From contig JASBSB010000005.1 of assembly GCA_030149205.1 (NCBI GenBank), positions 30,001 through 62,000 on the forward strand: a DNA stretch of 32,000 nucleotides, read 5' to 3'. The stretch comes from Candidatus Heimdallarchaeota archaeon (GTDB taxonomy: Archaea > Asgardarchaeota > Heimdallarchaeia > Heimdallarchaeales > Kariarchaeaceae). The translations under genes and the position numbers were made by a program. Position 1 is the first letter of the stretch. Each line of letters opens with the position of its first letter. This document shows, in pieces, positions 362-26,788 of the stretch. The notes below the pieces were generated by a model. That model was not told the DNA's origin. It made no database searches and saw only the letters and a list, made by a program, of their open reading frames with translations.

Positions 362-1588
362 TCACCAAAGAGTTTTGACATTTACTGATGGTGCATCTTG
401 ATCCCAAGATGAACTAGTATTTCCAACCTCTTCACCCAAATCCAAAGCATATGGAGAATCCACCCCAGATAATATAACTGTTACTTCAAGCTTGTTCCCT
501 AAACTTTCGTCCTTGTCAGTTCCCCAAATAATTTCAGCACCCCTACCAATTTCTTGAGTAATCATTCTAACACTTCTCTTAATCTCATCCAAGCTTAGTG
601 ATTCTCCTCCTGTTATCTGAATCAAAGCAGCCTTAGCATCCGAGATTTGAATATCCAAAAGGTTTGAAGCAAGTGCCTCTGCTATGGCTTCTTCCACTCG
701 ATGTTCTCCTTCTCCTTCTCCTACTCCAATTACAGAACTACCACCCCTGGTAAGAATTTGTCTGATGTCTGCGAAATCTACATTCACATAAGCTTTGCTT
801 TTGATTAGGTTAACAATTCCTCTAACAGCTTTGATTAAGATCTCGTCAGCGACCTTAAATGCCAAATCTAAGGGGAGGTCTGAACTTAATTGTAATAATT
901 TCTCATTTGGAATTACTATAACTGTATCACATGATTTGTATAGCTCTCTTAACCCTTCCAATGCATTTTTGATCTTGTACTCTCCTTCCATCTCAAATGG
1001 TAATGTACAAACTCCAACAACCAAGGCACCTTGTTCTTTTGCTACACTTGCTATAACTGGAGCAGCACCAGTTCCTGTTCCACCTCCCATTCCTGCTTGC
1101 ACGAAAACTAGATCTGCACCAGACACCAATTCTTCAATCTCTGGGATTGATTCCTCTGCAGCTGCTCTGCCTATCACGGGGTCATTTCCTGCTCCAAGCC
1201 CCTCAGTTAGGTTTTTTCCAAGTATCAATTTCTTGTTACTATTGGTACTGTAGAGATGAAAAGCGTCAGTGTTCGCTGCAACTGACACCGCCCCCTTCAA
1301 GCCCTTTAGGTGCAATCTGTTAACAGCATTTGAACCTGCTCCACCCACCCCAAACACCAGTATCTTGTTTAGATTGTTGGTAATCAAGACTTTTATAATA
1401 TTGTCAACCTGGTCAGAGTTGTATTTGCTCTTTTTATCATTCAGCGGAATTTCATTAGATGATTTCTCTTGATGTTTCCTCTTTATACTGGAAATAAAGG
1501 ATGGTTCTTTGATTTTGGGTTCTTGTGACTGATAAACAGTCTCCAACTCATCCCACATATCAAGATGATCTTTAATGGGAGAACTCAT
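362..1588 (-). CDS. ftsZ: Cell division GTPase FtsZ with an N-terminal extension of about 60 aa
   Basis: GVGGAGSNAV, ANTD, GLGAG, tubulin signature GMGGGTGTGAAP, T7 loop NVDFAD. ATG at 1588 (MSSPIK) preferred over the track's TTG at 1627. Confidence 0.97.
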   Translation of the reverse strand: MSSPIKDHLDMWDELETVYQSQEPKIKEPSFISSIKRKHQEKSSNEIPLNDKKSKYNSDQVDNIIKVLITNNLNKILVFGVGGAGSNAVNRLHLKGLKGAVSVAANTDAFHLYSTNSNKKLILGKNLTEGLGAGNDPVIGRAAAEESIPEIEELVSGADLVFVQAGMGGGTGTGAAPVIASVAKEQGALVVGVCTLPFEMEGEYKIKNALEGLRELYKSCDTVIVIPNEKLLQLSSDLPLDLAFKVADEILIKAVRGIVNLIKSKAYVNVDFADIRQILTRGGSSVIGVGEGEGEHRVEEAIAEALASNLLDIQISDAKAALIQITGGESLSLDEIKRSVRMITQEIGRGAEIIWGTDKDESLGNKLEVTVILSGVDSPYALDLGEEVGNTSSSWDQDAPSVNVKTLW

Positions 1589-1768
1589 AGAAAAAAATCT
1601 AGTACTTAGAATTAATAAAGAAGTCAATATAGATGTGTTATGTCAGTAGTATCGAACCAAGGAGTATACTGAATTATTACAAATAAAAAGTATATTTTAG
1701 TAAGCTAATGGAATAGGGAGAAGCCTTTAATCAATATATTAAAATATGTTACTTACAGTATATCTACA

Positions 1769-2158
1769 TTGATAGATTTCAATATCGAAGATGCTGAAAG
1801 TGCCGAGAAGGATTTTACCCAAAATTTCTCTAGACTTCATCTTACAGATTTTCAAATGACAATTGTGGATAATATCACAGAGTTTCTTGATGATAAATTA
1901 GTTCTAAGTGTATTTGCTTTAAAGGGGTTCATTTATAGAGCAGTCAAGGTTTGGCAACAAACCATGGAAAAACCCGGTAACAGTATTGAGTCTTTTACTC
2001 CTAAGGAACGAATAGAGGCAGTTAGATCTATGTTCAAAACTTTGGAAACTCTCTTAAAACCAGCTTTAAAAAACTCAACAGATGATGAAGAATTAACAAG
2101 AATCATGACTGATGGCTTGAAATTTTACACTGATAAATTTGCATACCGTGAAGACTAG
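1769..2158 (+). CDS. Hypothetical small alpha-helical protein, divergent from ftsZ
   Basis: 129-aa ORF (TTG start) with natural composition filling the gap. Its stop interlocks with the plsC stop on the opposite strand (CTAG 2155-2158). No motif recognised. Confidence 0.7.
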   Translation: MIDFNIEDAESAEKDFTQNFSRLHLTDFQMTIVDNITEFLDDKLVLSVFALKGFIYRAVKVWQQTMEKPGNSIESFTPKERIEAVRSMFKTLETLLKPALKNSTDDEELTRIMTDGLKFYTDKFAYRED

Positions 2159-2898
2159 ATTCCTAACTGAGTATAATGGTTATATAAATCAATAATCTGT
2201 TCGTTGGGTACTTGATACCATCCAGTTAATAGTCTGATCTTCTTCATTATTTTATCTGTAACCAACCGTATAATTTCGAAATTCTCTTTGTCTGAATAAT
2301 ACTCTTCAAATGAGATAGGGGTTCCTATCTTCATAATCACCGGACGTCCTAATCTTGGCATCTTTGCACCATAAGGCCAGAGTCCATCAGTTCCAAATAA
2401 GCCTACAGGTACCACAGGGACCTCTGCATTAAGGGCCATTCGTGCGATCCCAGTTTTACCATCGAATCGTTTTCGACGGTTAAGAATTGCACCTTCAGGG
2501 AAGATGCCAACACATGCACCCTCCTTCAAAGCAGTGACTGCTGTATTTATGACACTATTTTTGTTCTTTTCCTTACGCTCAGGAACTGGAATTGTGCCAA
2601 TAAAATCATTGATCTTGCCAAATATAGGGTTAGACCATAAGGTTCTTTGTCTCCCAACAAATCGAACCCTGTGTGAATTAATCTCTAAACCCATAACAAA
2701 AGCATCCACAATTGATCCGTGATTTGCAGCGAGAATAAACCCTTGGTTCTTATCAATATTTGAAAGATTTTCAGTTCCATAGGTTTTAACGTTATAAGTA
2801 AGATGCAACAAAAATTTGAAAATACCCTTTACAGATTGATAGGCCCATTCTGCTGGTACATCATATCCTTTAGGTTTGGTTGTTATTTGGTTGTGCAT
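2155..2898 (-). CDS. plsC: Lysophospholipid acyltransferase (PlsC / 1-acyl-sn-glycerol-3-phosphate acyltransferase family)
   Basis: LPLAT blocks: NHGSIVD (HX4D), FVGR, FPEG, GIARMAL...VPVVPV. Confidence 0.92.
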   Translation of the reverse strand: MHNQITTKPKGYDVPAEWAYQSVKGIFKFLLHLTYNVKTYGTENLSNIDKNQGFILAANHGSIVDAFVMGLEINSHRVRFVGRQRTLWSNPIFGKINDFIGTIPVPERKEKNKNSVINTAVTALKEGACVGIFPEGAILNRRKRFDGKTGIARMALNAEVPVVPVGLFGTDGLWPYGAKMPRLGRPVIMKIGTPISFEEYYSDKENFEIIRLVTDKIMKKIRLLTGWYQVPNEQIIDLYNHYTQLGI

Positions 2899-3148
2899 TA
2901 ATTGCCTCCTCGTAAGCTTCTTCGTATGATAACAGAATAGGTTCCTTGGTCACAATCATAGTATAACCAACCCAAGCAATAACTCCGCCTACAGTTAATG
3001 AGAGAATAAGTAGCGGTACTATCAATCCTACATACTGAATTGTAAAGCCACTCTGATCCATGATTTTGGTTGCAATTAGAGCATAAATCTCAAATCCAAT
3101 TATTAAAATCCCTGAGATAAATATTAGTGACCCCTTGAATTTACTCAT
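2870..3148 (-). CDS. Small two-TM membrane protein, overlapping the plsC start
   Basis: Two hydrophobic segments then WVGYTMIVTKEP and an acidic tail. Resembles a small archaeal 2-TM family with a WIGYTxxTTPPP motif (recalled, not searched). Confidence 0.75.
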   Translation of the reverse strand: MSKFKGSLIFISGILIIGFEIYALIATKIMDQSGFTIQYVGLIVPLLILSLTVGGVIAWVGYTMIVTKEPILLSYEEAYEEAINAQPNNNQT

Positions 3149-3326
3149 ATTATCACAAAAATTATAGTATTATTTAAGAACATTTTTTGTTAAGGTTAGT
3201 AAATTGTAACCATTGACTTTATGGAAGAATTTAATCAGTTGTTCGGATTTTTATTTTTAGATGGTTTTTCGTATTCTACTTAATGCTTGAATGAAATGTT
3301 TAAGAAAATCTGAATGATAATTAATT

Positions 3327-3842
3327 ATGGCAGTTATCCATGAGGTCATTATTTGTCCAAATTGTGAGAAAGAGATAAACCCCAGTGAGGCGACACATGT
3401 TGTAAAAAGAGGTCAATCAAGATTTAATTGGTGGGTCACCCCAGTGAATCTATTTCTGATTTCTATTATGTTTCTGCTACTTGAACTAGGGACGAATTCC
3501 GGTTCTTTTACATCTTTCAAATGGAGCCCGTGGGTGGTTGCGGGTATTTGGATAATTTACTTTGGAGCACTCTTTCTTACACTCAGGATTGAAGATTCTT
3601 GGTTTTACGCTTCCTTAATCTTCGTGGGATTTTGTGTCTATCTTGCTCTTTTGGATCTTGAATTCCCATCCAAGCAACCTACTGTATTAGGTTTAACTTG
3701 GAGTTTTTACCCTATCGTAATCATTCTATTTCTGCTTGTACTTCTACCAGTCAATTCATATTTCGGACAAAAACGAAAACAATCAGTAGAGTTACTAAAA
3801 GAAGTTATAAAACTAGAGGAAGAACATGTCAAGGGGGCATAA
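3327..3842 (+). CDS. Membrane protein, about 4 TM helices, with a single N-terminal CPNC
   Basis: Four hydrophobic stretches, CxxC near the N-terminus, charged C-terminal helix. 3' end overlaps or abuts the next gene. Confidence 0.75.
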   Translation: MAVIHEVIICPNCEKEINPSEATHVVKRGQSRFNWWVTPVNLFLISIMFLLLELGTNSGSFTSFKWSPWVVAGIWIIYFGALFLTLRIEDSWFYASLIFVGFCVYLALLDLEFPSKQPTVLGLTWSFYPIVIILFLLVLLPVNSYFGQKRKQSVELLKEVIKLEEEHVKGA

Positions 3843-3843
3843 T

Positions 3844-4776
3844 ATGAAAGAATTTAATTTTATAGATATTGTTTCTGATCCCTCTCCAACTCTGCTTTCC
3901 ACTTTTTTTCACTCTTTAAGAAATTCGGTTTATGTAATTATTAGTGTTCTTCATTTTTTATTGTTGCCTCTCATGGCTACATATCAATCAATATGGCCTA
4001 AAGGTTATGATCGTACAGTCAAACCAGAGGCAGAGGAATTTTATTGGCACCCTGGTGGAGACCCAAAATCTGGTGTTTTAATGATACACGGTTTTGGGTC
4101 AACACCACAGATATTTAGAGAATATGGGAAACAATTTTTAGAGGATGGGTATATAGTTTATGGTATCAGAATTATCGGACACGGATCGAGCGAGGCACAT
4201 CTAGCAGACACATTACCAATCGATTGGTATCTTTCGGTTAGAGATAAATATAGAGAGTTACAGGCTCAGTGTGAAGAGGTTCACATCGTAGGACATTCAC
4301 TTGGCTCATTGAATGCATTGATACTTGCATCAATTTACCCTATAAAGTCACTGGTGTTACTTTCATGTCCTATAAAAATTCGAAGAACTCCATTATTTAG
4401 GGCACATTTTCTATTGAGACCATTATCTGTGGTGATTAAGTACTGGCCAGTTGGTCGAGAAAAACGCCGTAAACTTAAGGAGTTTGGAATTCATCAATAT
4501 CAAAAAAATCCACTTAAGGCTGTTGAAGGTTTGTTTGAAATTGCAGAAGTCACAAGAGAGAGACTCCCGAAAGTAACTTGCCCTGTTCTTGCTATGGTGG
4601 GTGATGATGATGAATATGTGGAGCTATCTACTCTAGATTTACTTGAGAGCAATTTAAGTGTATCCGAATTCTCAACTTGGGTTGCACCAAACGCAGGTCA
4701 TCTGATCATAGAAACTTCAGAGAAGACGATATTGGACAAAAAAATACATGATTGGGTTATAGATCATGATCAATAA
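3844..4776 (+). CDS. Alpha/beta hydrolase (carboxylesterase / monoacylglycerol-lipase-like) with N-terminal hydrophobic segment
   Basis: HGFGS oxyanion motif, GHSLG nucleophile elbow, Asp in GDDDEYV, His in AGHL. Start at ATG 3844 (after AAGGGGG) or ATG 3826. Confidence 0.9.
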   Translation: MKEFNFIDIVSDPSPTLLSTFFHSLRNSVYVIISVLHFLLLPLMATYQSIWPKGYDRTVKPEAEEFYWHPGGDPKSGVLMIHGFGSTPQIFREYGKQFLEDGYIVYGIRIIGHGSSEAHLADTLPIDWYLSVRDKYRELQAQCEEVHIVGHSLGSLNALILASIYPIKSLVLLSCPIKIRRTPLFRAHFLLRPLSVVIKYWPVGREKRRKLKEFGIHQYQKNPLKAVEGLFEIAEVTRERLPKVTCPVLAMVGDDDEYVELSTLDLLESNLSVSEFSTWVAPNAGHLIIETSEKTILDKKIHDWVIDHDQ

Positions 4777-9634: not shown

Positions 9635-11083
9635 ATGGTTGTGCAGGTTCAGGTCTTTAAAGAACAACTCGTTGAAAAATACAGACCGAAATCAAAGTCA
9701 GACCTAATCGGTAATGAAGAGGCGGTGAAGAAAGTTTTTGATTTTCTATCAAATTGGAAACCTGGTGACAAATTAAAGTCCCTGCTACTTGTGGGTCCAC
9801 CAGGGACTGGAAAGACATCATCAGTTTACGCAATAGCAAATGATCTTGGATATGATGTTGTAGAGTTCAATGCTTCAGACACACGTAGAAAAAATGAAAT
9901 TAATGAAACCGTTTTACCCATATCAAAGTTTGGTTCTATTGATGGTGAGGTTAAGAGGGTCATCTTACTAGATGAAATAGATGGGCTATCAGGACAGAAA
10001 GATAGGGGGGCAGTCCCAGCGATCAAAAAATTAATTTCTGATTCTAATTATCCAGTCTTATTATGTGCTAATGATCCAGAAAGCAGATATGTTGAAGCTT
10101 TAGCTAAATCAGCTCCTTTGGTCGTATTCACCCGTCCAGATGAATTCACAATCTTTGATTTATTAGAATCTATAGTTGAAAAAGAAAAATTGAAGGTTGA
10201 TGAAATTACCTTACAAATTATTTCGGAAATGTCAGCGGGCGATATTCGTGCTGCATTGAATGAATTAGAAGCTGCAGCAGTTGGTAAAGATAGAGGATAT
10301 ATACCAGCCAAAAGGGATAAAATGAGGATATTACTGGATTACTTTAACAATTTCTTCCAGTCAAAAACTCCTGAAGAAGCAAAAAAAGCCTGGGAAGGAG
10401 CTCCGAGTGATTATGCGCTTATTTTGAACTTTCTGGTAGACCTGACATCATCTCAATGTAAAAATAAACATGAAATTGCTAACGCTTATAGAGTTCTCGC
10501 CTACGCAGATTTGATCTTTACGCGAATAATTTGGACTCAAAATTGGGGACTCCTACGATTCTTTTTTGATATGATTGGTCCCGAATTAAGAAGATCAATA
10601 GAGGTAAGAAGAACCCCCAGAATCAAAAGATTAAATAATCTTCCGAATTCATATTTTGCCAGAGGAAGGAGTAAAACTGTAAACAAGCTTGCCTGGGAAT
10701 TATCAGAAGAGGTTGCCCATAAATTACACCTTGGAAAAAACACCTTTGTTTTTCGTGAATTTCCATATTTCTTGAAAATTATGAAAGGAAAAACTGGAGC
10801 TAATGTGTTAGCTTCATTAGATGTAAGCGAAGAGTTAGTTCAGAAGATTGTCAGAACAACTGGCTCAAATGAAATTCTAAAATTCATTGAGGAATCTCGG
10901 AGAGATATTGGTCTTACAAGGGTAAAAGACCAAAACGAAAGTATTAAGCCTGAAGAAGATGTGGTTCAAGGTTTATTGGATCGTTTTTTAATAGATGAAA
11001 CAAAACCCTCAGAAATTGAATCGACCTCAAAGAAAAAACAGGAAGATGTAAAAGACCAACAAACCCTTGACAGCTTTTTCTGA
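9635..11083 (+). CDS. rfcL: Replication factor C large subunit
   Basis: EKYRP, Walker A GPPGTGKTS, NASD, Walker B LLDEIDG, GDIR, C-terminal canonical PIP box QQTLDSFF. Confidence 0.96.
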   Translation: MVVQVQVFKEQLVEKYRPKSKSDLIGNEEAVKKVFDFLSNWKPGDKLKSLLLVGPPGTGKTSSVYAIANDLGYDVVEFNASDTRRKNEINETVLPISKFGSIDGEVKRVILLDEIDGLSGQKDRGAVPAIKKLISDSNYPVLLCANDPESRYVEALAKSAPLVVFTRPDEFTIFDLLESIVEKEKLKVDEITLQIISEMSAGDIRAALNELEAAAVGKDRGYIPAKRDKMRILLDYFNNFFQSKTPEEAKKAWEGAPSDYALILNFLVDLTSSQCKNKHEIANAYRVLAYADLIFTRIIWTQNWGLLRFFFDMIGPELRRSIEVRRTPRIKRLNNLPNSYFARGRSKTVNKLAWELSEEVAHKLHLGKNTFVFREFPYFLKIMKGKTGANVLASLDVSEELVQKIVRTTGSNEILKFIEESRRDIGLTRVKDQNESIKPEEDVVQGLLDRFLIDETKPSEIESTSKKKQEDVKDQQTLDSFF

Positions 11084-16094: not shown

Positions 16095-18140
16095 TTATAC
16101 TGTTAAGAGTAGGTTCATCTCAGCCATATTCTTTGAGATCACTTTTTCTAACTTATCGATATCTTCAGTGTACTGAGAATTTAACCTCATATAAACTGTT
16201 TTTGGAATTTCCTTTTTGAGATACTTTGCCTCGTTTTTCTCCATAGAAGTTCTTACATCTAGCTGGTTGAAATGTGCGTCCATAACCTTGTTTACCAGAT
16301 TCTTATACTTTGGACCTATAGGTTGAGATGCTCTAACCGCAGCATTTAGTTGCTCGTTTAAGTTCTTTAATTTCTTATTCAATGATTTCATCGTGGCATT
16401 GTATTCTCGCTTTTTCATTTTGCCCTTTTTAACAGACTGTTTAATAAAATCAATTCTATCAGTGGTAGCTTTAACCTCTATAAAGACATTGTAGAAATTC
16501 TCAAGTTCTTTAACTGGAATTTTCTCACGAGAGACGTCAATAACTGTTTCTTCAACTAACCCTTCGGTTTGACTAAATTCATTCCATTTCTTATTTAATT
16601 GATATAATCCAATATATGCTAAAATTAGCACTAAAAATATAAAGAATAAATTAAGTATTGGTAGTAACAATGCCACTCTATTGTATCCAAATGTGATTTG
16701 AAAATCTCGGTTGTCAAATTGAGAGACATTGTATCCACGAATAACAAAATCAACATTTCTGAAAAGACTTAAAGGTGGACGAGCAGTCTTCACATCTACT
16801 TGGAAAACAGCTTGCTGTGAGACTGGATCAAATGTTGTGGAGAACAAGGTCGCAGATGTGGGGAGCTTATAGGTGGAAGTAAATCTTTCAACTGTGGCAT
16901 TAAACAATGATGATAGGCTGGTGTTTAACGTTAATCCAGAAGAACTGGTTGTTATTACTTTATTTGAGTCGAATTGATAGAAGACTGAAAAGGTGTAAGA
17001 ATCTCCTCCGAATAATTGATCTCTAAAAACGACTGATAATGAATTAAACCCAGATATAGCCGAAGCTTTCAGGTCAGGGTATCCTGTACTGGCATTTCTT
17101 GCACCAAGATTTAAACTTCCCAATTTATCACTGACTTGAGTTACTACAGCATTGTTGGGGATAAAAAGTGTGGTACCCTTAACACCATAAAGCTTCTTAT
17201 AACCACCTGTTCTATTTGGATCTAAAGGAGCCCCAATATGTTTTATCGTAATTAACTCAGCTACATACACCTTTCCAAAAGGGTCAATTCTTACGGTTCT
17301 ATCAATACTTGGGTAAGTGATAGGTGTCGTCGTTCCCTGCTTAGGTTGTGTTGGGCTTGTGCTATCAAAAATCACAAGAGCATAATCAATCCCAGAAACT
17401 AATTTATGTGTGGCATTAATCTTAACATAGTCTAAATTACGCCATACTAGATTTGATGCTGTATACTGGTATTGACCAACCGAATCTGAAGAGAATTTAT
17501 CATTTTGACCTTCTAACCTAATTCCTGCTTCTGCACTGACATTTAAATTGAAAAAGAGTGGTCTAACTGGTAATTTAATAGTCCCTCTCTGTTCACCATT
17601 ATAGGCTGACCAAGTAAAGAAATCTGGGGTTCCCAATGTTGCATGAATATAAACTTTTGAGTTATTAATATCTGCTGGCTTAGTTCCATTCATTACTGGA
17701 ATGAAATAAGTGGTAAGCTCAGAGCCCTGAAGAACATATGGGGTTCTTGTGTTGTTTGCATTAAGGATGCCTACATCACTTCCATATTGTACATAGAACT
17801 TTGCTAGATCTACATGCTTTTGATAGAATGTAGGAATGGTATAGTTAAAGTAACTGATTTTTGTCTTATTATCGTGAATGGTTAAAGACATCGCGTCTTC
17901 AACTAGTGTTCGAGCGGAAACTTTGATTGTTATGGTTCTGTTCACAAATGCAGAAGCATTAAGATTTGGATTTGCAGGAGGTTGGGTTATGAACCCGTTT
18001 GTTTTTACCTCAGTTGAATTTACAGCATTTGTAGTACTGTTTGATGGCAATGTATTATCATGTCCAAATATCCCTGGAGCGGGAGCAACAACTGTAGTTG
18101 CAAAGATTAGCAATATAAGCCAAAACTTAAGTGATTTCAA
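16095..18140 (-). CDS. Ribophorin I (OST1/RPN1)-like oligosaccharyltransferase accessory subunit
   Basis: Signal peptide; large beta-rich ectodomain with IDRTVRIDPFGKVYVAELITIKH and FRDQLFGGDSYTF (cf. RPN1 R.PLFGGW..F); one TM helix near aa 490-515; cytoplasmic coiled-coil tail. TTG start after GAGG. Confidence 0.82.
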   Translation of the reverse strand: MKSLKFWLILLIFATTVVAPAPGIFGHDNTLPSNSTTNAVNSTEVKTNGFITQPPANPNLNASAFVNRTITIKVSARTLVEDAMSLTIHDNKTKISYFNYTIPTFYQKHVDLAKFYVQYGSDVGILNANNTRTPYVLQGSELTTYFIPVMNGTKPADINNSKVYIHATLGTPDFFTWSAYNGEQRGTIKLPVRPLFFNLNVSAEAGIRLEGQNDKFSSDSVGQYQYTASNLVWRNLDYVKINATHKLVSGIDYALVIFDSTSPTQPKQGTTTPITYPSIDRTVRIDPFGKVYVAELITIKHIGAPLDPNRTGGYKKLYGVKGTTLFIPNNAVVTQVSDKLGSLNLGARNASTGYPDLKASAISGFNSLSVVFRDQLFGGDSYTFSVFYQFDSNKVITTSSSGLTLNTSLSSLFNATVERFTSTYKLPTSATLFSTTFDPVSQQAVFQVDVKTARPPLSLFRNVDFVIRGYNVSQFDNRDFQITFGYNRVALLLPILNLFFIFLVLILAYIGLYQLNKKWNEFSQTEGLVEETVIDVSREKIPVKELENFYNVFIEVKATTDRIDFIKQSVKKGKMKKREYNATMKSLNKKLKNLNEQLNAAVRASQPIGPKYKNLVNKVMDAHFNQLDVRTSMEKNEAKYLKKEIPKTVYMRLNSQYTEDIDKLEKVISKNMAEMNLLLTV

Positions 18141-18953: not shown

Positions 18954-20045
18954 ATGACAACAGAAAAAATCATACGATTGGGTGAACTGGCAGAAAGAAT
19001 CGCACTCAAGGTACAATCGCTTGGAGAAAATCTATCTGAAAGTCTAAATTCAATTAATGTTGAATGGAATAAATTACCTGAACCAGATAAGGAAAACATC
19101 GTTTTTTGTCCTGTGGATGGGGGTTCTCGAACCAAACAACTTAGTGGAAGCACCATTATCTATGCTCAAGCTGCAGGTCGACCCATGGGAACAGAAAAAA
19201 CAAAGGGGATCGATTGGCAGATTGAACAGGACGCAGAAATATTAACATCAGGGACTAAGCTTGCTGAAGATTTGGCAGGACAGGTAAGATTAAGGTTGGA
19301 GGTGACAGTGGCTGCGAATCTTATTGAGAAACACAGTCCAGATATTCTTTTGTTAGATGGTACATTGAATTCCTTATTTTTAATAGGAATGCCTTCGAGA
19401 CTTAACACTTTTATCCAAGAAGATTCGGATGATGAAAATTTAGAAAGTGATTTATCCGTCTACAGACGTGAACTTATAGCGTATGGTGATGTTCTCCGAG
19501 AATTCATGGATTTAGTGAATGAAAATTCAACCACTGTATTATCACTCTCAAAGGATAGTTACTCCAAACTTTATATTCCGGATCTGTATTCAGATGAAGC
19601 ATTGACAGATACAGTTTTGTTAAGGCTAAAAAGTCAAGGTGAACCAGGATACACAAATTCCAAGATCAGTACACCTTCAGACCTTCTCAAAGGAAACAAG
19701 CAATTGCTGAGACTTTGGCAAAAATCCAATCCAAAGTTGAAATTCTCACCTAAAGAAATTGAATATTCGTCATTTTATACAAATTTTATTAAAAATGGGA
19801 TTCCCTTTAGGACTGATATTTTTAATTCTCAATTCCAAGCTGAAGAATCAATAATATCCAAACTTTTACAAATTACAAATGGACAGGATTGGTTAATACC
19901 CCCAAGATTAGCACATGAGGCAGCAGTGGTTAGAAATGAAATCTTAGATCACTTTTATCATCAAGTGTTTGTAAGGGCGGAAAAACAAAATCCAAAAATT
20001 GCGCACTATGTTTTAACACCCTCAAGGAGAGAGAGAACACAATAG
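18954..20045 (+). CDS. nurA: DNA double-strand break repair nuclease NurA
   Basis: PVDGGS, LLLDGTL, SLSKDS, and C-terminal PPRLAHEAAVV are NurA RNase H-fold motifs. herA-mre11-rad50 lie downstream in the same orientation. Confidence 0.87.
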   Translation: MTTEKIIRLGELAERIALKVQSLGENLSESLNSINVEWNKLPEPDKENIVFCPVDGGSRTKQLSGSTIIYAQAAGRPMGTEKTKGIDWQIEQDAEILTSGTKLAEDLAGQVRLRLEVTVAANLIEKHSPDILLLDGTLNSLFLIGMPSRLNTFIQEDSDDENLESDLSVYRRELIAYGDVLREFMDLVNENSTTVLSLSKDSYSKLYIPDLYSDEALTDTVLLRLKSQGEPGYTNSKISTPSDLLKGNKQLLRLWQKSNPKLKFSPKEIEYSSFYTNFIKNGIPFRTDIFNSQFQAEESIISKLLQITNGQDWLIPPRLAHEAAVVRNEILDHFYHQVFVRAEKQNPKIAHYVLTPSRRERTQ

Positions 20046-20102
20046 ATAATATTGGCAAATCCAATGTGGTAATACATAAAATTACATAAAGTATAAGGTT
20101 TT

Positions 20103-20537
20103 ATTAAAAGTATTAGTCAAGTAAATTTAAATTCCCTGTTTCGTGTACAATGTCTGCTGCTTCTAAGGGAAGGGCCAAAAAGCGGATATGACCTCGCAAA
20201 ACTCTTAAAGGAAATGACAGGCGATAAACCAAGCACAGGGAAGATTTATCCCTTTCTTCATGAACTTAAGGAAAAAGGATATGCTATTGAGATAGATGAG
20301 GTCGAGGATAACAGAGGAACAACTAAATATCATTTGTCCAAAGAAGGTATAGAACTTATTGATGATGTCCTTTCCAGAATGGGTAATCTAATCGAAGCAA
20401 GATTGGAGCAGCTCCTTGAATCTTGTTACCATTGTGGGATCAAATTATATGGACCAAAAGTTTATGGAAAGGGTAAGGAAGGCAAAAAACAGGCTTTCTG
20501 CTGTACTCATTGTCGAGACTCGTATTTGGAACATTAA
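20103..20537 (+). CDS. PadR-family wHTH regulator fused to a C-terminal TRASH/YHS-like metal-binding domain; true start upstream of the annotated ATG 20214
   Basis: Frame is open from 20097 and reads ...SLFRVQCLLLLREGPKSGYDLAKLLKEMTGDKPSTGKIYPFLHELKEKGY (PadR helices). C-terminus CYHC...FCCTHC. Start placed tentatively at ATT 20103. Confidence 0.82.
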   Translation: MKSISQVNLNSLFRVQCLLLLREGPKSGYDLAKLLKEMTGDKPSTGKIYPFLHELKEKGYAIEIDEVEDNRGTTKYHLSKEGIELIDDVLSRMGNLIEARLEQLLESCYHCGIKLYGPKVYGKGKEGKKQAFCCTHCRDSYLEH

Positions 20538-20540
20538 GGG

Positions 20541-20562
20541 TTTATTTTTTATTTAAAAAAAA
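20541..20562. terminator. Putative bidirectional T-tract terminator between convergent padR and copA
   Basis: TTTATTTTTTATTT followed by an A8 run (a T-tract on the minus strand). Confidence 0.45.
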
Positions 20563-20601
20563 TTTCTCACAATTCATTTAACTTGAAAAAGTATAACTAT
20601 T

Positions 20602-23211
20602 TTAGGCGGTGATAGGAGTAGCAGACAAATTAAGGTCTATTTTAGGGACTTTGTAGCGCTTTAGAAGTAAACTGCTGGTAACGACAGAAACTGATGAAAA
20701 TGCCATTGCGAGTCCCGCGAATTCAGGAGGTAAGGTAAATACAATATTTGAAGCTGCATAGATTATAGGTACAAACACACCAGCTGCAAGTGGAATTCCA
20801 AGTACATTGTAAATAAAAGCCCATCCAAAATTTATTTTTATACGTCTGAATGTTGTTTTTGAGAGGTCTATTGCCTTAACCACATCTCTGAGATCGTTTT
20901 TAATCAAAACCAAATCTGCAGTTTCAATTGCTACATCAGTTCCCGCTCCAATTGCGATTCCTATGTCTGCTTGTGCAAGAGCAGGGGCATCATTTATGCC
21001 ATCACCAACCATTCCAACTTTCTTACCCTTCACTTGTAGCTCTTTTACCTTCTCTGCCTTCTCTTGCGGTAATACAGAAGCTAAAACGTTTGTAATGCCC
21101 ACTTGTTTGGCTATATAATTTGCAGTTCTTTGGTTGTCTCCTGTTATCATCCAAACCTCAATACCCATTTCTTGAAGTTTTTGAACTGCAACTTTTGAGG
21201 TTGGTTTTATTGTATCGGCAACGGCGAACAATCCAACTACTTCATCATTGACAACTCCTAACATAACTGTTTTACCCTGTCCTTCTAACTCCTGAACTTT
21301 TGAACGAGTGTTTTCAGGTATTGCTTTACCTTCTTCCTTAAGCAAGTCTGGTTTACCCAAGAGAACTTTATTGCCGTTTACAGTCCCTGTAACTCCTTTA
21401 CCAAGAACAGCCTGAAAATCTGTAGGTTCACTCAAATTAGCATTAGATTCTTTGGCATAATTCACAATAGCTTTACCAAGAGGATGTTCAGAACCTAACT
21501 CAACAGATGCCAATAATGACAAAGTGTTTTCGTCATTCTTGAAATTTACAAATTCAGTTACCTTGGGTTTTCCCTCTGTGATTGTCCCGGTCTTATCTAG
21601 AACTACTGCATTTAAAGAATGTGCACCTTCTAATGCTTCTCCACCTTTGATTAATATCCCATTTTTAGCCCCTAAACCTGTCCCAACCATTATTGCAGTA
21701 GGTGTGGCTAATCCTAATGCACAAGGGCATGAAATAACAACCACTGAGATTGCAAGAAGGAATGAGAAAAGAAATGGAGAAGAACCTGGAGGCACCCATG
21801 AAAGTGGTACTACGTTAAGCTGAAATAAGCTAAACCAAACGAAAAAGGTTAGGATTGCAATACTCACAACAACCGGCACAAAAACAGAGGATATTTTATC
21901 TGCTAGTGCTTGAACAGGTGCTTTTGACAATTGGGCGTCCTCAATAAGCTTTACAATCTGTGAGAGTGTGGTGTCTTTTCCAACCTTTTCTGCTTTTACA
22001 TAAATAACTCCAGATTGATTTATTGTGGAACCAGTAACAACTTCACCTTTAGTCTTAATAACTGGGATTGGTTCTCCAGTTATCATAGATTCATCTACAG
22101 AGGAACTTCCATCAACAACACTTCCATCAACAGGTATCTTTTCACCAGGATAAACTTTTAAGATATCACCAACTTCCACAAGTTCTGCTTCAATCTTTTT
22201 CTCTTCAATGATCTCACCATTTTCATTATAGGTCAATAGGTTTGCTGTGGTTGCTTGTTGATCCAATAAATCTTTAATGGCTGTTGAAGTCTTACCCTTA
22301 GCATTAGCTTCAAGATACTTTCCAAAAATGATGAATGTTATCAGATAAGCAGCTGTGTCAAAAAACACATCACTGTAAAATTGAGGGACGAAAAAGTGAT
22401 AGATCATCACAAACAGACTGTAGAAATAAGCAGCGGATGTACCAATCATCACTAATACATCCATTGTTGCACTTCTATGCCTGAGAACAGCAAAGGATTT
22501 CGTGTAGAAACTTTTACCAACCCAAAATTGAACTGGCGTTACGAATAGAAATAATAAGAAATCTTTAAGGAAAACATTTGGAAATATTTCAATGTGGTAA
22601 AATTGTGTGATTGCTGAAATCTGAAACATAAATGGTATCATATAAAGGAAAAAAATTGGGAGCGTGAATACTAGACTTGCTATTAATTTATGTCTCCAGT
22701 ATTGTATTTCTTCCTTTTTAGACAGTTTATCCAGTGTTACCCCACCTTGGGATAACTTGGCTTTGTAACCTACATCCTCAACTAAATTAATAAGATCTCT
22801 GGCTCCTAGTTTTAAGGGGTCATACTCAATTAAGCCTTTTTCGGTACTCAAATTCACCCTAATTGACTTTACACCATCCTGAGAACCCACGTAATTCTCT
22901 ATAGTGTTAACACAGCTAGCACAGGTCATCCCACTGATATCTAACTCCGCAACACCATCTTCATTGAACTTTTTCTCGATCTCTGCACCAAATCCCACAT
23001 CTTTGATTAATTCCGCAATCTGGTCTTCAGTGTACTTGGATCTATCAAATTCTACTTGCGCTTGTTCTGTTGTTAAATTAACTTTAACAGACTTCACACC
23101 TTCCTGAGATCCTACATAGTTCTCTATAGTGTTGACACAGCTTGCACAGGTCATTCCAGAGACGTTGATCATCAGAGGTGGTTCTTTGACTTTTTGCACA
23201 TCTTCTGACAT
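20602..23211 (-). CDS. copA: Cu(I)-exporting P1B-1 ATPase with two N-terminal HMA domains
   Basis: Two [42 protein letters not shown] and MAFSS. Confidence 0.97.
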
Positions 23212-23227
23212 TTGTATCTAAGTAATG

Positions 23228-23242
23228 TATCAACAATTGATA
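23228..23242. promoter_or_regulatory. Putative operator TATCA-N5-TGATA in the copA promoter
   Basis: TATCAAcaaTTGATA lies between the minus-strand TATA (TTTATATA, 23248-23241, preceded by purine-rich ACAAAAG) and the copA ATG at 23211. Confidence 0.6.
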
Positions 23243-23293
23243 TATAAATTCTTTTGTTATGAACCTTTCCAAAATTTTGATGTTTAAGTATAC

Positions 23294-23509
23294 CTAGTTT
23301 AAAACTTTGTATCCGAGTTGAGAGATTGCTTCCTTTAGTTTTTCTACATTCCCTTTTGATGCATCTGTGAGTGTGAAGTCACCTTTTGCAGCTTCCCATT
23401 CTACATCCGCTTTTTCAACAAAATCAAATTTTGATGTCCTTGCTTTAATTCCATTGGAACACCCATTGCAGGTCATTCCCTCTATTTCTAATGTTATTGT
23501 TTTAGACAT
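23294..23509 (-). CDS. copZ: Copper chaperone (HMA domain)
   Basis: 71 aa, IEGMTCNGC, ferredoxin-like HMA pattern, upstream of copA, AGGTGA RBS. Confidence 0.93.
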   Translation of the reverse strand: MSKTITLEIEGMTCNGCSNGIKARTSKFDFVEKADVEWEAAKGDFTLTDASKGNVEKLKEAISQLGYKVLN

Positions 23510-23510
23510 A

Positions 23511-23527
23511 ATATCACCTGATGATAT
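23511..23527. promoter_or_regulatory. Putative operator ATATCA-N5-TGATAT at the copZ 5' end
   Basis: ATATCAcctgaTGATAT, same core and spacing as the copA site. Overlaps the copZ RBS and probable TSS region. Confidence 0.5.
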
Positions 23528-23750
23528 GTTAAATATTGATATATTAGAAATATTATAAAGGTATAGATAATAGTACTATTCCGCCTATTAATGAATGAGA
23601 GATTAGTTTCAATACACTGACTCTCCTAAATGTTTTTAGCAATATGAAACTTTCATAGGTTAGTCTTACAATGATTTTATCTGTGAATATTTGGAGTGGT
23701 AAATCTTTAAATAGAAAAACAAGATTGAGTCATTATGGAGGGAACACATA

Positions 23751-25364
23751 TTGAGTTCTAATTTAACTATTAATAATAATCAGTCAATCGGTGCAGTCAT
23801 TGGAGAAACAACCTCTCATGACTTAGAATTTATTGTTGATGTTGATCAAAATGAGATTCGACCTGTTGAGGTCGGTGAATATGTTGGAATATCATATGGA
23901 AACAATCGATATGCCATCGGATTGGTTACAGAAATTACTCGTGTAAACAATGAAATCATCAGTAGTTTCGCAAATTCTCCTTCATCAGTTTCTCGTATGA
24001 ATGAGCTATCCATGTACCCTGGTTCACAAAGAATTGTTGCCTCTGTCTCAGTTCAGGGAATCTTAAATGAAAATGGTCAGTTGATAAGACCGAGATACCC
24101 ACCAGCCCCGGGAGCGGAGGTCATTCGAGATCCAACTGAGATACTGGATGTTGTATTTGCAGGTGGTGGAGTTAAAGTCGGAAACTTAGTTGCAAATCCT
24201 GAAGTAGAAGTTAGCCTTGATATAAACAAGTTAATTTCAAGACATTTTTCGGTTCTTGCTGTTACAGGTGCAGGAAAGAGTTATACGGTAAGTGTCATAC
24301 TTGATGAAATTATGAAGAATATGCCTTTTGCTAGTATAGTTATTCTAGACCCACACCAAGATTACTTTTATTTAAGAGAAAACACAGAATATGGAAACAA
24401 AGTTCAGATATTTACACCTAGTGGAGACGGTAATAGCAGTAGAATCAAATTTAAAATCTCAAATTTCGATAATACTAAAATTATGGATATAATTGGATTG
24501 AGAGAAAATGCCAGCCGACAAAGAAGTTTCCTTTCAAATGTTTTGACAGAAATGAGAAATGCAAATGAAAACTGGGATCTTAGTGATGTCAGAGAAGAGA
24601 TAAACACTCAGCTAAACAACCCAGAAATCAGTGCCCAAACTAAGAGTCTTGGATATTCTGTTTTAAATTACCTCAACTGGGTTGTAGGGGAAGACTTTTT
24701 GGATGCATTGGTTGAGACACCACTGACAAGCCCAAATGAACCTTGCCTTACCAAGAAGGGTCAAATGACAATAATAGGTACAGGTCTACTTGATAATCGA
24801 GCAAAAGGTTTCTTGGTTGAAGAAGTATTGAAAAAAATCTTTACTGGGGCAGTAAATTATCGAAGAGGGACAAACCCTGAAAATGCCTTGGAGGGACCAA
24901 TATTAGTAATTCTAGAAGAGGCACATCAGTTTATTCCTGGGTTCAATGAAAAATCGTCCTGTAGAGGTATTATTAAACAGATAGCAGGTGAAGGTAGAAA
25001 ATTTGGGGTTGGTTTAGGAATCATTAGTCAGAGACCTGGGAAGGTCGATGAAAATGTGCTTTCACAATGTAACACACAAATTACCCTGAAAATTACGAAC
25101 CCCAAGGATCAAAATGCAATAGGATCTGCAAGTGAAAGCATTACACAGGACCTTCTTAACGATCTTCCCGGTCTTAACACTGGAGAGGCAATTATCAATG
25201 GTTCAGCTATTACATCTCCTGCTTTTGTTAAAATAAGGCAACTTGACCTTACCCCTGGGGGAGATGACATTGATATAGAATCAGAATGGGTAACCCCAAA
25301 TGAAAATGAAGATGTTGTTACAAGCTCTGTGGATCCAGAGCCTGATTACGAGGGAATGGTATGA
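23751..25364 (+). CDS. herA: HerA bipolar DNA helicase/translocase (HAS barrel + ATPase)
   Basis: N-terminal HAS barrel, Walker A AVTGAGKS, Walker B ILEEAH, EGRKFGVGLGIISQRP, LSQCNTQ. TTG start after GGAG. Confidence 0.94.
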   Translation: MSSNLTINNNQSIGAVIGETTSHDLEFIVDVDQNEIRPVEVGEYVGISYGNNRYAIGLVTEITRVNNEIISSFANSPSSVSRMNELSMYPGSQRIVASVSVQGILNENGQLIRPRYPPAPGAEVIRDPTEILDVVFAGGGVKVGNLVANPEVEVSLDINKLISRHFSVLAVTGAGKSYTVSVILDEIMKNMPFASIVILDPHQDYFYLRENTEYGNKVQIFTPSGDGNSSRIKFKISNFDNTKIMDIIGLRENASRQRSFLSNVLTEMRNANENWDLSDVREEINTQLNNPEISAQTKSLGYSVLNYLNWVVGEDFLDALVETPLTSPNEPCLTKKGQMTIIGTGLLDNRAKGFLVEEVLKKIFTGAVNYRRGTNPENALEGPILVILEEAHQFIPGFNEKSSCRGIIKQIAGEGRKFGVGLGIISQRPGKVDENVLSQCNTQITLKITNPKDQNAIGSASESITQDLLNDLPGLNTGEAIINGSAITSPAFVKIRQLDLTPGGDDIDIESEWVTPNENEDVVTSSVDPEPDYEGMV

Positions 25365-26788
25365 CAACTTTTGTTCATACATCTGATTGGCACCTTGGCT
25401 TTTTTCAATATAACAAAAATCTTAGACATGATGACTTCTTTGCAGCAGCAAATAGAATCGTTGATAAAATAATAAAAATTGAGCCAGATTTTGTGCTTCA
25501 CACAGGGGATCTTTTTCATCATAAATCTCCTACACCTGGGAGTGTTCTACAGGCATTAAAGTTGCTTAACAAACTAACAAAGAAAAAAATACCAGTATTC
25601 ATCATCCGGGGTAACCATGATGCGTACACGACAAGGAACCTTCAGTACGGTGGAACTGCTTTACAGCTACTTAATGAGGCAACTGGATTGAACTATATCA
25701 ATGATGATGTAATGAACTTCAATGATGTGGATATCATTGGAGTCGGTCATTACTTCTCCGGAAGGGCTAATGAAACATTACAACGTATAAATCAAGAAAA
25801 GAGACCCTTTGATGATCGTTCAAACTTTAAAATATTAGCGATTCATAATTTTATAGAAGGACAAATTTCAGACACTTCAGAGGTAAGTTTGAGTCTGATT
25901 CAGGATCTAGCACCTGATTACGTTGCAGCTGGTCATTTTCATATCCCTTGGAAGCGAGAAAAATTAAATATATTTGTCCCAGGAAGCTCTGAATCTACAT
26001 CCGCTAATGATTGGAACAGAGAGGATAACCTGAATGGAAATATTACACTATATTCTTCATTTTACGAGGTAAAATTGGAAAATCATAATGGTTGGAGTAA
26101 GGAGGTGATTCAACATAGGATACCGGTTAGGCCAAAATTCAAGTTAGAGATTTCATCAGAGTCAATTGATCATCTGGAAATTAAATCTCAAATTTCAGAA
26201 GAAATCAATCAAGTAAAAAAATTTGCATTTTCTACAATTGTTGAAGAATTTAACTACAACTCTGATAAGAAACCAGTACGAACCGCATTTGAACAACCAT
26301 TAGTTCGAATAAGGCTAGATGCAAAAAATCTTCCACAGACCAACCAACATTTAATTAGCACACAAGAGTTAGAGTCAGAGTTAGGTTTGCTTAACCTTGA
26401 AATTTCATTTGATGATTCATTCGAATCTGATTTTCCAATAACTCAAGGTGAACATGTTGTTGTTGAAGATTTACTTCAAGAGTTAATCGAGGAAAGCGAA
26501 ATAGATGACAAACCTCACCTAACCCAATTAGTCCATCAAACTATAGATTATTTTGGTCAAAAGGCAAAAAGTACGACTCTTGGTCTGGACGACCTCAACC
26601 ATTTTCTGAGAATACAAGATGAAAGCTGGAAATTAGGATCTACCCCGAAAATTATGAAATACACAGAAGATGAGCCTCCGAAAGAGAATCTAAATGCTTC
26701 GTCTTCAAATCCAAATAAAAAAGCTTCAGCAGAATCATCCAAATCATCTCGAAAAAGAAACCAGCAATGGGAGGATCTCTTTGAATGA
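25361..26788 (+). CDS. mre11: Mre11 nuclease
   Basis: SDWH, GDLFH, GNHD, GHFH phosphoesterase motifs. ATGA overlap with herA. Confidence 0.93.
   Translation: MTTFVHTSDWHLGFFQYNKNLRHDDFFAAANRIVDKIIKIEPDFVLHTGDLFHHKSPTPGSVLQALKLLNKLTKKKIPVFIIRGNHDAYTTRNLQYGGTALQLLNEATGLNYINDDVMNFNDVDIIGVGHYFSGRANETLQRINQEKRPFDDRSNFKILAIHNFIEGQISDTSEVSLSLIQDLAPDYVAAGHFHIPWKREKLNIFVPGSSESTSANDWNREDNLNGNITLYSSFYEVKLENHNGWSKEVIQHRIPVRPKFKLEISSESIDHLEIKSQISEEINQVKKFAFSTIVEEFNYNSDKKPVRTAFEQPLVRIRLDAKNLPQTNQHLISTQELESELGLLNLEISFDDSFESDFPITQGEHVVVEDLLQELIEESEIDDKPHLTQLVHQTIDYFGQKAKSTTLGLDDLNHFLRIQDESWKLGSTPKIMKYTEDEPPKENLNASSSNPNKKASAESSKSSRKRNQQWEDLFE

Follow-up and report, generated by a model that had tools for sequence, protein, structure and literature searches.

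A PadR-TRASH fusion protein as a predicted copper-responsive repressor in Asgard archaea

Which protein controls copper export in an Asgard archaeon? In archaea, copper sensing has so far been described only for the Lrp-TRASH regulators CopR and CopT of a few cultured species, and PadR proteins do not belong to the handful of structural families established as metal sensors. The question is raised by a regulator gene facing the copper genes copA and copZ in the window analysed here, a stretch of 32,000 nucleotides from Candidatus Heimdallarchaeota archaeon (family Kariarchaeaceae; assembly GCA_030149205.1, contig JASBSB010000005.1, here C12:30001-62000; genome of 3.3 Mb, 93.5% complete). A preliminary description of the locus had proposed that this regulator joins a PadR-type winged helix-turn-helix to a C-terminal CxxC...CCxxC domain of the TRASH clan, that its helix-turn-helix differs from that of CopR and CopT, that the gene converges on copA-copZ and that no characterised example of such a protein was known. 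These proposals are borne out by the analyses below. We consider the regulator to be probably a Cu(I)-released repressor built on a subfamily-2 PadR (PadR-s2) scaffold, analogous to the Lrp-TRASH protein CopR and to CopY.

A PadR winged helix joined to a cysteine module

Read from the ATT codon at position 20103 (144 amino acids), the regulator matches the Pfam PadR model PF03551 over residues 18 to 82 (E 3.7e-10; 40.1 bits against a cut-off of 27), as do all 61 relatives that were scanned. The AlphaFold2 model (predicted local distance difference test [pLDDT] 94) places helices at residues 12-22, 28-39 and 45-57, a wing at 61-78 and a long helix at 80-104, beyond which follow two small hairpins and a further helix; the modelled helix-wing-long helix arrangement is the layout of PadR-s2. 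Foldseek searches with this model returned the PadR-s2 structures 3elk, 6abt and 5zi8 (template-modelling [TM] score to target, 0.66-0.80) as well as LmrR and RosR. A profile of the 61 relatives matched 70 solved PadR structures in the PDB, with Ta0346 as the best match (2e-14), over profile positions of about 6-100 only. Since all of these matches end near position 100, no solved structure holds the C-terminal module. The three sequence motifs of PadR-s2, YGYE(I/L), EGTxYPxLxRLE and RKYYxLTxxG (PMC3506622), are readable in the regulator as SGYDL, TGKIYPFLHELKE and RGTTKYHLSKEG, and no Lrp/AsnC model matched the regulator up to E 1. By Pfam, profile and fold, the N-terminal half is a PadR-s2 winged helix and not an Lrp/AsnC domain.

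The C-terminal half carries the motif C108-x2-C111-x21-C133-C134-x-H136-C137, which is unchanged in 15 of 15 close orthologues, all of which also retain His110. Among the 61 diverse relatives, C108, C111, C134 and C137 are present in every sequence and C133 in nearly all, with H136 being conserved in about 90% across the family. Ettema et al. in 2003 reportedly gave the TRASH cysteine consensus as C-x2-C-x19-22-C-x3-C, and the spacing C108-x2-C111-x21-C133-x3-C137 fits it. The TRASH clan in Pfam comprises here YHS, Arc_trans_TRASH, TRASH_HVO_1752_C, zf-FCS, ATPase-cat_bd and L24e. The 61 relatives matched PF24273 (TRASH_HVO_1752_C) in 33 cases at E<0.01 (best E 1.7e-7), Ta0938 in 17, zf-FCS in 12, ATPase-cat_bd in 11 and Arc_trans_TRASH in 6; the YHS model was also matched by some, and one relative exceeded a clan cut-off (27.5 bits against 27).

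When the module was modelled on its own (45 amino acids; pLDDT 88), the top 50 Foldseek matches were all eL24 or RLP24 (TM score to query, 0.60-0.71; root-mean-square deviation of about 2 Å over 40 residues), at E-values of only about 0.01-0.06. VIA-align of the same model gave Z-scores of 5.1 for eL24, 4.0 for the copper chaperone NosL and 3.6 for the MYM TRASH domain 2das. These scores are modest because the domain has only 45 residues. Since the motif, the family-wide matches to hidden Markov models (HMMs) and the predicted fold agree, we assign the module to the TRASH clan and take it as a TRASH-type domain with an eL24-like fold of beta-hairpin and helix, holding a putative metal site. 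The window regulator ends after a single His, and many relatives (L053-L055, L065, L067 and other loci) carry His-rich C-terminal tails reminiscent of the tail of Thermococcales CopR.

Family spread, copper genes and candidate operators

Close orthologues of the regulator were found in Heimdall metagenome-assembled genomes only, the nearest protein matches bearing the names Heimdallarchaeota or Kariarchaeaceae, and the architecture as such is widespread. An HMM search of 1.84 billion representative sequences yielded about 75 further clusters at 50% identity with the same two-part architecture, and a profile search of a set of 5.8 billion yielded 1,101 clusters at E<=1e-10, with Bathyarchaeota, Methanomethylicaceae, Heimdallarchaeota and Hodarchaeales among the source names. 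Full-length copies (E<1e-38) are present in about 125 of 400 Asgard genomes, covering 12 of 33 families. The PadR-TRASH fusion is thus a large archaeal family, neither rare nor peculiar to the genome of the window, although its members are named in the databases only as 'PadR family' or 'helix-turn-helix' regulators. The window genome itself has a single PadR-TRASH gene, and no Arc_trans_TRASH regulator was found in its 3.3 Mb.

Linkage of the architecture to P1B ATPase genes had been set beforehand as the check on which the proposal could fail, and the proposal passed it. Forty loci of 12 Asgard families were chosen by match score and not by context, with 8 kb fetched on each side, and 33 of them have a CopA-type ATPase or CopZ gene within 8 kb of the regulator; given three copper ATPases in 3.3 Mb, about 1.5% would be expected by chance. 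At the family level, copA or copZ lies no more than 5 kb from the regulator in 6 of 9 loci, where the genes are convergent, divergent, co-directional or 4 kb apart. Such varied arrangements point to a functional association rather than to inherited synteny. In most of the sampled loci, the regulator is either transcribed divergently from copA/copZ across 180-670 bp or shares their strand at a distance of 20-150 bp; the convergent layout of the window, where the regulator on the plus strand faces copA on the minus strand, is an exception among them. The identities of the two copper genes follow from TIGR01511 for copA and from HMA domains, and the copA translation carries the CPC, YN and MxxSS residues of Cu(I) pumps (Table 1).

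An operator common to both cop promoters, as claimed in the preliminary description, could be refined to a 17-bp palindrome, ATRTCA-N5-TGAYAT, and followed into relatives. With up to one mismatch, the pattern occurs 4 times in the window against 0.67 expected, and 3 of these sites belong to the promoters of copA and copZ. The promoter of copA, read on the coding strand, consists of the TATA box TTTATATA (23241-23248) followed by TCAATTGTTGATAC, and the candidate operator overlaps the last three bases of this box and lies between it and the start. Of the two copZ sites, O1 lies 17 nucleotides downstream of the TATA box TTTATAAT (23552-23559), and O2, which shares two bases with O1 and ends one base before the copZ ATG, is among only 9 perfect sites in the whole genome. 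The fourth match (10229-10245) is far from the cop locus and was taken for a chance occurrence, given 0.67 expected per window.

The operator is kept in the cop promoters of five relatives (L002, L003, L006, L007 and L009), as ATGTCA-N5-TGACAT (L002, L007, L009) or close variants of it, and twice in L007. The canonical PadR operator is an inverted repeat of ATGT and ACAT separated by 8-10 nucleotides (PMC3506622); ATGTCA-N5-TGACAT, being ATGT-N9-ACAT, has this form, and the window carries its ATATCA variant. We infer that the regulator is probably the protein that binds the palindrome. In other clades of the family, the related palindromes ATATATC-N6-GATATAT or TATATAC-N6-GTATATA stand beside the TATA box upstream of the regulator. 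No operator with up to two mismatches was found upstream of the regulator in the window, and autoregulation in this genus was accordingly rejected. Another palindrome upstream of the regulator, ATTGG-N5-CCAAT (about 20052-20066), is not conserved in L001-L003 and was dropped.

Across the genome, the pattern has 9 perfect sites and 86 with up to one mismatch, of which about 19 are intergenic. Seven intergenic sites lie directly upstream of copper-related genes or of a gene paired with one of them (Table 1), so that all three copper-type ATPases and both small metal-binding proteins of the genome carry the candidate operator. The second copper ATPase has two N-terminal cupredoxin-like domains besides HMA and is preceded by a gene for a flavin adenine dinucleotide (FAD)-dependent oxidoreductase. 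The third has a His-rich, CopB-like N-terminus and no HMA domain. The second small protein, after CopZ, is a CopM-like YHS protein, at which the perfect operator overlaps the annotated start and whose neighbours are DinB/MST-like and AHSA1-like genes. At a further locus (L095), two adjacent operator-like sites, one of them perfect, precede a gene for a 283-amino-acid protein that has no Pfam match. Its N-terminus resembles a signal peptide, with a guessed cleavage site and a His immediately behind the hydrophobic segment, and its C-terminus looks like a membrane anchor; its look-alikes in the Atlas are hypothetical proteins of Asgard archaea and Nitrososphaerota. It is possibly an extracellular, copper-related member of the regulon.

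In the window, the copper module of regulator, copA and copZ is placed between nurA and herA-mre11 (18954-26788), interrupting the usual archaeal cluster nurA-herA-mre11-rad50. In the same genus, L002 and L003 hold pieces of the module and cluster in another arrangement, and L001 has no copA near the regulator. Farther upstream, the Ribophorin I-like protein has 681 residues and is rich in N-glycosylation sequons; an open reading frame of similar length (675 amino acids) accompanies the regulator in L001-L004.

Table 1. Features of the copper locus in the window and candidate operator sites and copper genes elsewhere in the genome (positions without a contig are those of the window; gene positions at L093-L096 are given within the locus)
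Feature	Position	Strand	Remarks
Ribophorin I-like membrane protein	16095-18140	-	E 6.7e-7, above cut-off
Hexapeptide transferase			between Ribophorin I-like gene and nurA
nurA	18954-20045	+	directly before regulator
PadR-TRASH regulator gene	20103-20537	+	144 aa from ATT 20103 or 141 aa from conserved ATT 20112
ATT codon, probable non-canonical start	20112-20114	+	kept in 4 of 4 species of the genus
PadR winged helix-turn-helix	20154-20348	+	aa 18-82; helix 4 continues to about aa 104
TRASH-type Cys module	20424-20513	+	C108 to C137
copA, Cu(I)-type P1B-1 ATPase	20602-23211	-	TIGR01511, 628 bits; two N-terminal HMA domains
Candidate operator at copA	23227-23243	-	ATATCA-N5-TGATAC; one mismatch; spans about -25 to -9; copA downstream
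copZ, HMA metallochaperone	23294-23509	-	71 aa; GMTCxxC motif
Candidate operator O2 at copZ	23511-23527	-	ATATCA-N5-TGATAT, perfect palindrome; covers ribosome-binding site; copZ downstream
Candidate operator O1 at copZ	23526-23542	-	ATATCA-N5-TAACAT; one mismatch; over expected transcription start; copZ downstream
herA and mre11		+	beyond copZ
Candidate operator	C1:114149		one mismatch; His-rich CopB-like ATPase; site abuts ATG
Third P1B ATPase	L096 (G000:C1:112001-118000), 2166-4271	+	
Candidate operator	C7:437064		one mismatch; ATPase with two cupredoxin domains and HMA; site 31 nt upstream
Candidate operator	C7:438532		no mismatch; FAD oxidoreductase heading the same gene pair
Second copper ATPase	L094 (G000:C7:434001-441500), 532-3033	-	
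Candidate operator	C8:74403		no mismatch; 73-aa YHS protein
YHS protein	L093 (G000:C8:73001-77000), 1413-1634	+	Pfam E 5e-15
283-aa protein	L095 (G000:C8:304001-309500), 1275-2126	-	

A conserved ATT codon as the probable start

The frame of the regulator is open from 20097 to the stop codon at 20535-20537, the nearest in-frame stop upstream being at 20094-20096. Between that stop and the conserved N-terminus the frame contains no ATG, GTG or TTG, the first such codon being at 20214. For this reason gene callers shorten the regulator to 107 amino acids and hide the PadR domain; the mechanical reading frame from ATG 20214 (P0001) lacks helices 1 and 2 and has no Pfam domain on record.

Several observations point to the ATT at 20112 as the likely start. 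The codon is ATT in all four species of the genus (the window, L001, L002 and L003), a fifth sequence, P0002, has Ile at this place, and the ATG of L007 and L008, two orthologues at a greater distance, falls there. Only L002 among these four species offers a canonical start before the conserved N-terminus, an ATG five codons upstream; the other three have none. Over the 34 codons that follow, pairs of species differ by synonymous change only in 9-19 codons and by amino acid-changing substitution in 6-14; the mostly synonymous change indicates that this stretch is translated under selection. A conserved TAAAAAGT-like box lies 26-28 nucleotides 5' of the ATT, so that transcription would be expected to start at about the ATT itself. 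This suggests to us a leaderless, AUU-initiated mRNA with low constitutive expression. A start at CTG 20136 was rejected, the codon not being conserved, as was a frameshift start from an upstream out-of-frame ATG, the only nearby ATG in the window meeting a stop after two codons.

Proposed mechanism, alternatives and known copper sensors

In the mechanism that we propose, a dimer, as expected for a PadR-s2 winged helix on a 17-bp palindrome, would bind ATRTCA-N5-TGAYAT and block initiation, at copA by occupying the stretch from the TATA box to the transcription start and at copZ by covering the start region. Cu(I), perhaps delivered from CopZ or the YHS protein, would bind the invariant cysteines directly after the dimerisation helix 4 and, as in CopY, may drive out a Zn(II) held in the resting state. 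Helix 4 is the dimer interface of PadR-s2, so that metal bound by the adjoining TRASH cysteines could change how far apart the two recognition helices stand; the altered geometry would release the DNA and derepress copper export. In the genus of the window, a transcript starting at or near the conserved AUU would supply the regulator in low, steady amounts. We favour a Cu(I)-released repressor since the window sites lie at repressor positions and characterised PadR proteins act by ligand-induced release (PMC3506622).

Several points weigh against this reading. The 40 sampled loci are kin and thus not independent. The window protein reaches the curated cut-off of none of the TRASH-clan Pfam models (ATPase-cat_bd, E 0.0046; zf-FCS, E 0.006), and its gene is without a canonical start. 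Roughly a dozen further operator-like sites in intergenic DNA stand beside genes with no obvious copper link, including those for a globin, UvrB, a thiolase, a NifX-like protein, a small zinc-ribbon membrane protein and an unannotated secreted protein. Release from DNA is also not the only possible outcome of copper binding: CopR of Pyrococcus, the only well-studied archaeal TRASH regulator, stays on DNA and activates (PMC7830388). The same protein and sites could accordingly form a copper-dependent activator or dual regulator, which remains bound and changes shape with copper, and it fits this that the palindrome in many relatives is just upstream of or abuts the TATA box rather than lying downstream of it. 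The sites in the window, however, are at classic repressor positions, behind the TATA box and ahead of the start at copA and across both the ribosome-binding site and the start region at copZ, and the ligand-induced release of known PadR proteins argues in the same direction, so that we regard activation as unlikely here.

A Cys4 site of this shape can also be purely structural, with zinc serving folding, dimerisation or DNA contact; the protein would then sense thiol or oxidative stress or another signal, or repress constitutively. The zinc-ribbon or treble-clef-like geometry of the four invariant cysteines suits this explanation, as do the closest folds, those of the zinc-binding eL24 and of FCS/MYM fingers. 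It accords poorly with the company of copper pumps that the fusion keeps across 12 Asgard families, with a predicted regulon of copper genes, with the near-invariant fifth cysteine, the histidines at 136 (across the family) and 110 (in the close orthologues), and with the CopR-like His-rich tails of many relatives; a structural role alone therefore seems a little less likely still than activation. That the regulator is a decaying pseudogene, leaving the cop genes unregulated or under another factor, would account for the missing ATG, GTG or TTG and for the shortened product P0001. Yet the ATT is shared throughout the genus and matched by Ile in P0002, the codons after it have changed mostly synonymously, the frame is free of stops and frameshifts, and the PadR motifs, the cysteines and the operators are all intact, which makes decay very improbable.

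The Cu(I)-released repressor thus proposed has parts in common with two known types of copper regulator. With the archaeal proteins CopR and CopT (Pyrococcus furiosus PF0739, Thermococcus onnurineus CopR, Saccharolobus solfataricus CopR/CopT and Halobacterium VNG1179C) it shares the C-terminal TRASH domain, adjoining genes for copA and a metallochaperone (mostly divergent in the wider PadR-TRASH family), His-rich tails in its relatives and the predicted control of copper export. CopR and CopT, however, are built on an Lrp/AsnC-type helix-turn-helix with an octamer-forming core (PMC7830388), in place of which the window protein has PadR-s2; the two architectures were assembled independently. 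CopY of Enterococcus hirae and streptococci is likewise a small winged-helix repressor, as predicted here, with a C-terminal Cys cluster and an operon of the copZ-copA type. In CopY, Cu(I) handed over by CopZ takes the place of Zn(II), upon which the DNA is released, and by analogy a CopZ-fed exchange of zinc for copper is plausible in PadR-TRASH proteins. CopY, by contrast, is bacterial and combines a BlaI/MecI-type winged helix with CxCx4CxC, where the regulator has a PadR scaffold and a TRASH fold; the CxCx4CxC motif is absent from the window regulator, and Penicillinase_R was matched, weakly, by only 1 of the 61 relatives. In its predicted working the regulator is akin to CopR/CopT and to CopY, and it is a member of neither.

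Its nearest structural kin are the PadR-s2 proteins LmrR, BcPadR1/2, Ta0346, RosR and Rv3488, which have the same fold, the three motifs, a single C-terminal dimerisation helix and an operator of the kind ATGT-N8-10-ACAT. These known members, unlike the window protein, stop after helix 4 and answer to drugs, phenolics or stress, and none of the solved structures includes a TRASH domain. In the Halobacterium proteome, a PadR protein was reported to be copper-induced, with its deletion having no phenotype (PMC6978704). Our literature search found no paper that combines 'TRASH domain' with 'PadR', nor one that links PadR, metal binding and Asgard archaea or the PadR protein Rv3488 and cadmium, nor any relevant one on HVO_1752.

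Collectively, these results make it very likely that the PadR-TRASH family is a second kind of copper switch in archaea, in which, as we infer from the linked genes and the placement of the sites, the sensed metal would be copper and the control negative. Particular to the window are the convergent layout, a regulator without autoregulation, the 17-bp variant of the operator, a regulon traced across the genome and the ATT start that the genus conserves. As protein, operator and regulon are all defined, the hypothesis can be tested with recombinant protein alone. In Asgard archaea, where gene regulation is almost unexplored, the family would, if our reading is true, add a second, independently assembled TRASH sensor that is common among them. 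We incline, with some reserve, to a wider view, in which PadR-TRASH proteins may be the main Cu(I) sensors in many archaea, both Asgard and other uncultured groups, and form a new structural class of metalloregulators, with a TRASH site appended to a PadR scaffold and possibly fed by CopZ or YHS proteins in a zinc-to-copper exchange; the regulon here would comprise three copper pumps and two chaperones, and the regulator level in this genus would be set by the conserved, probably leaderless AUU start.

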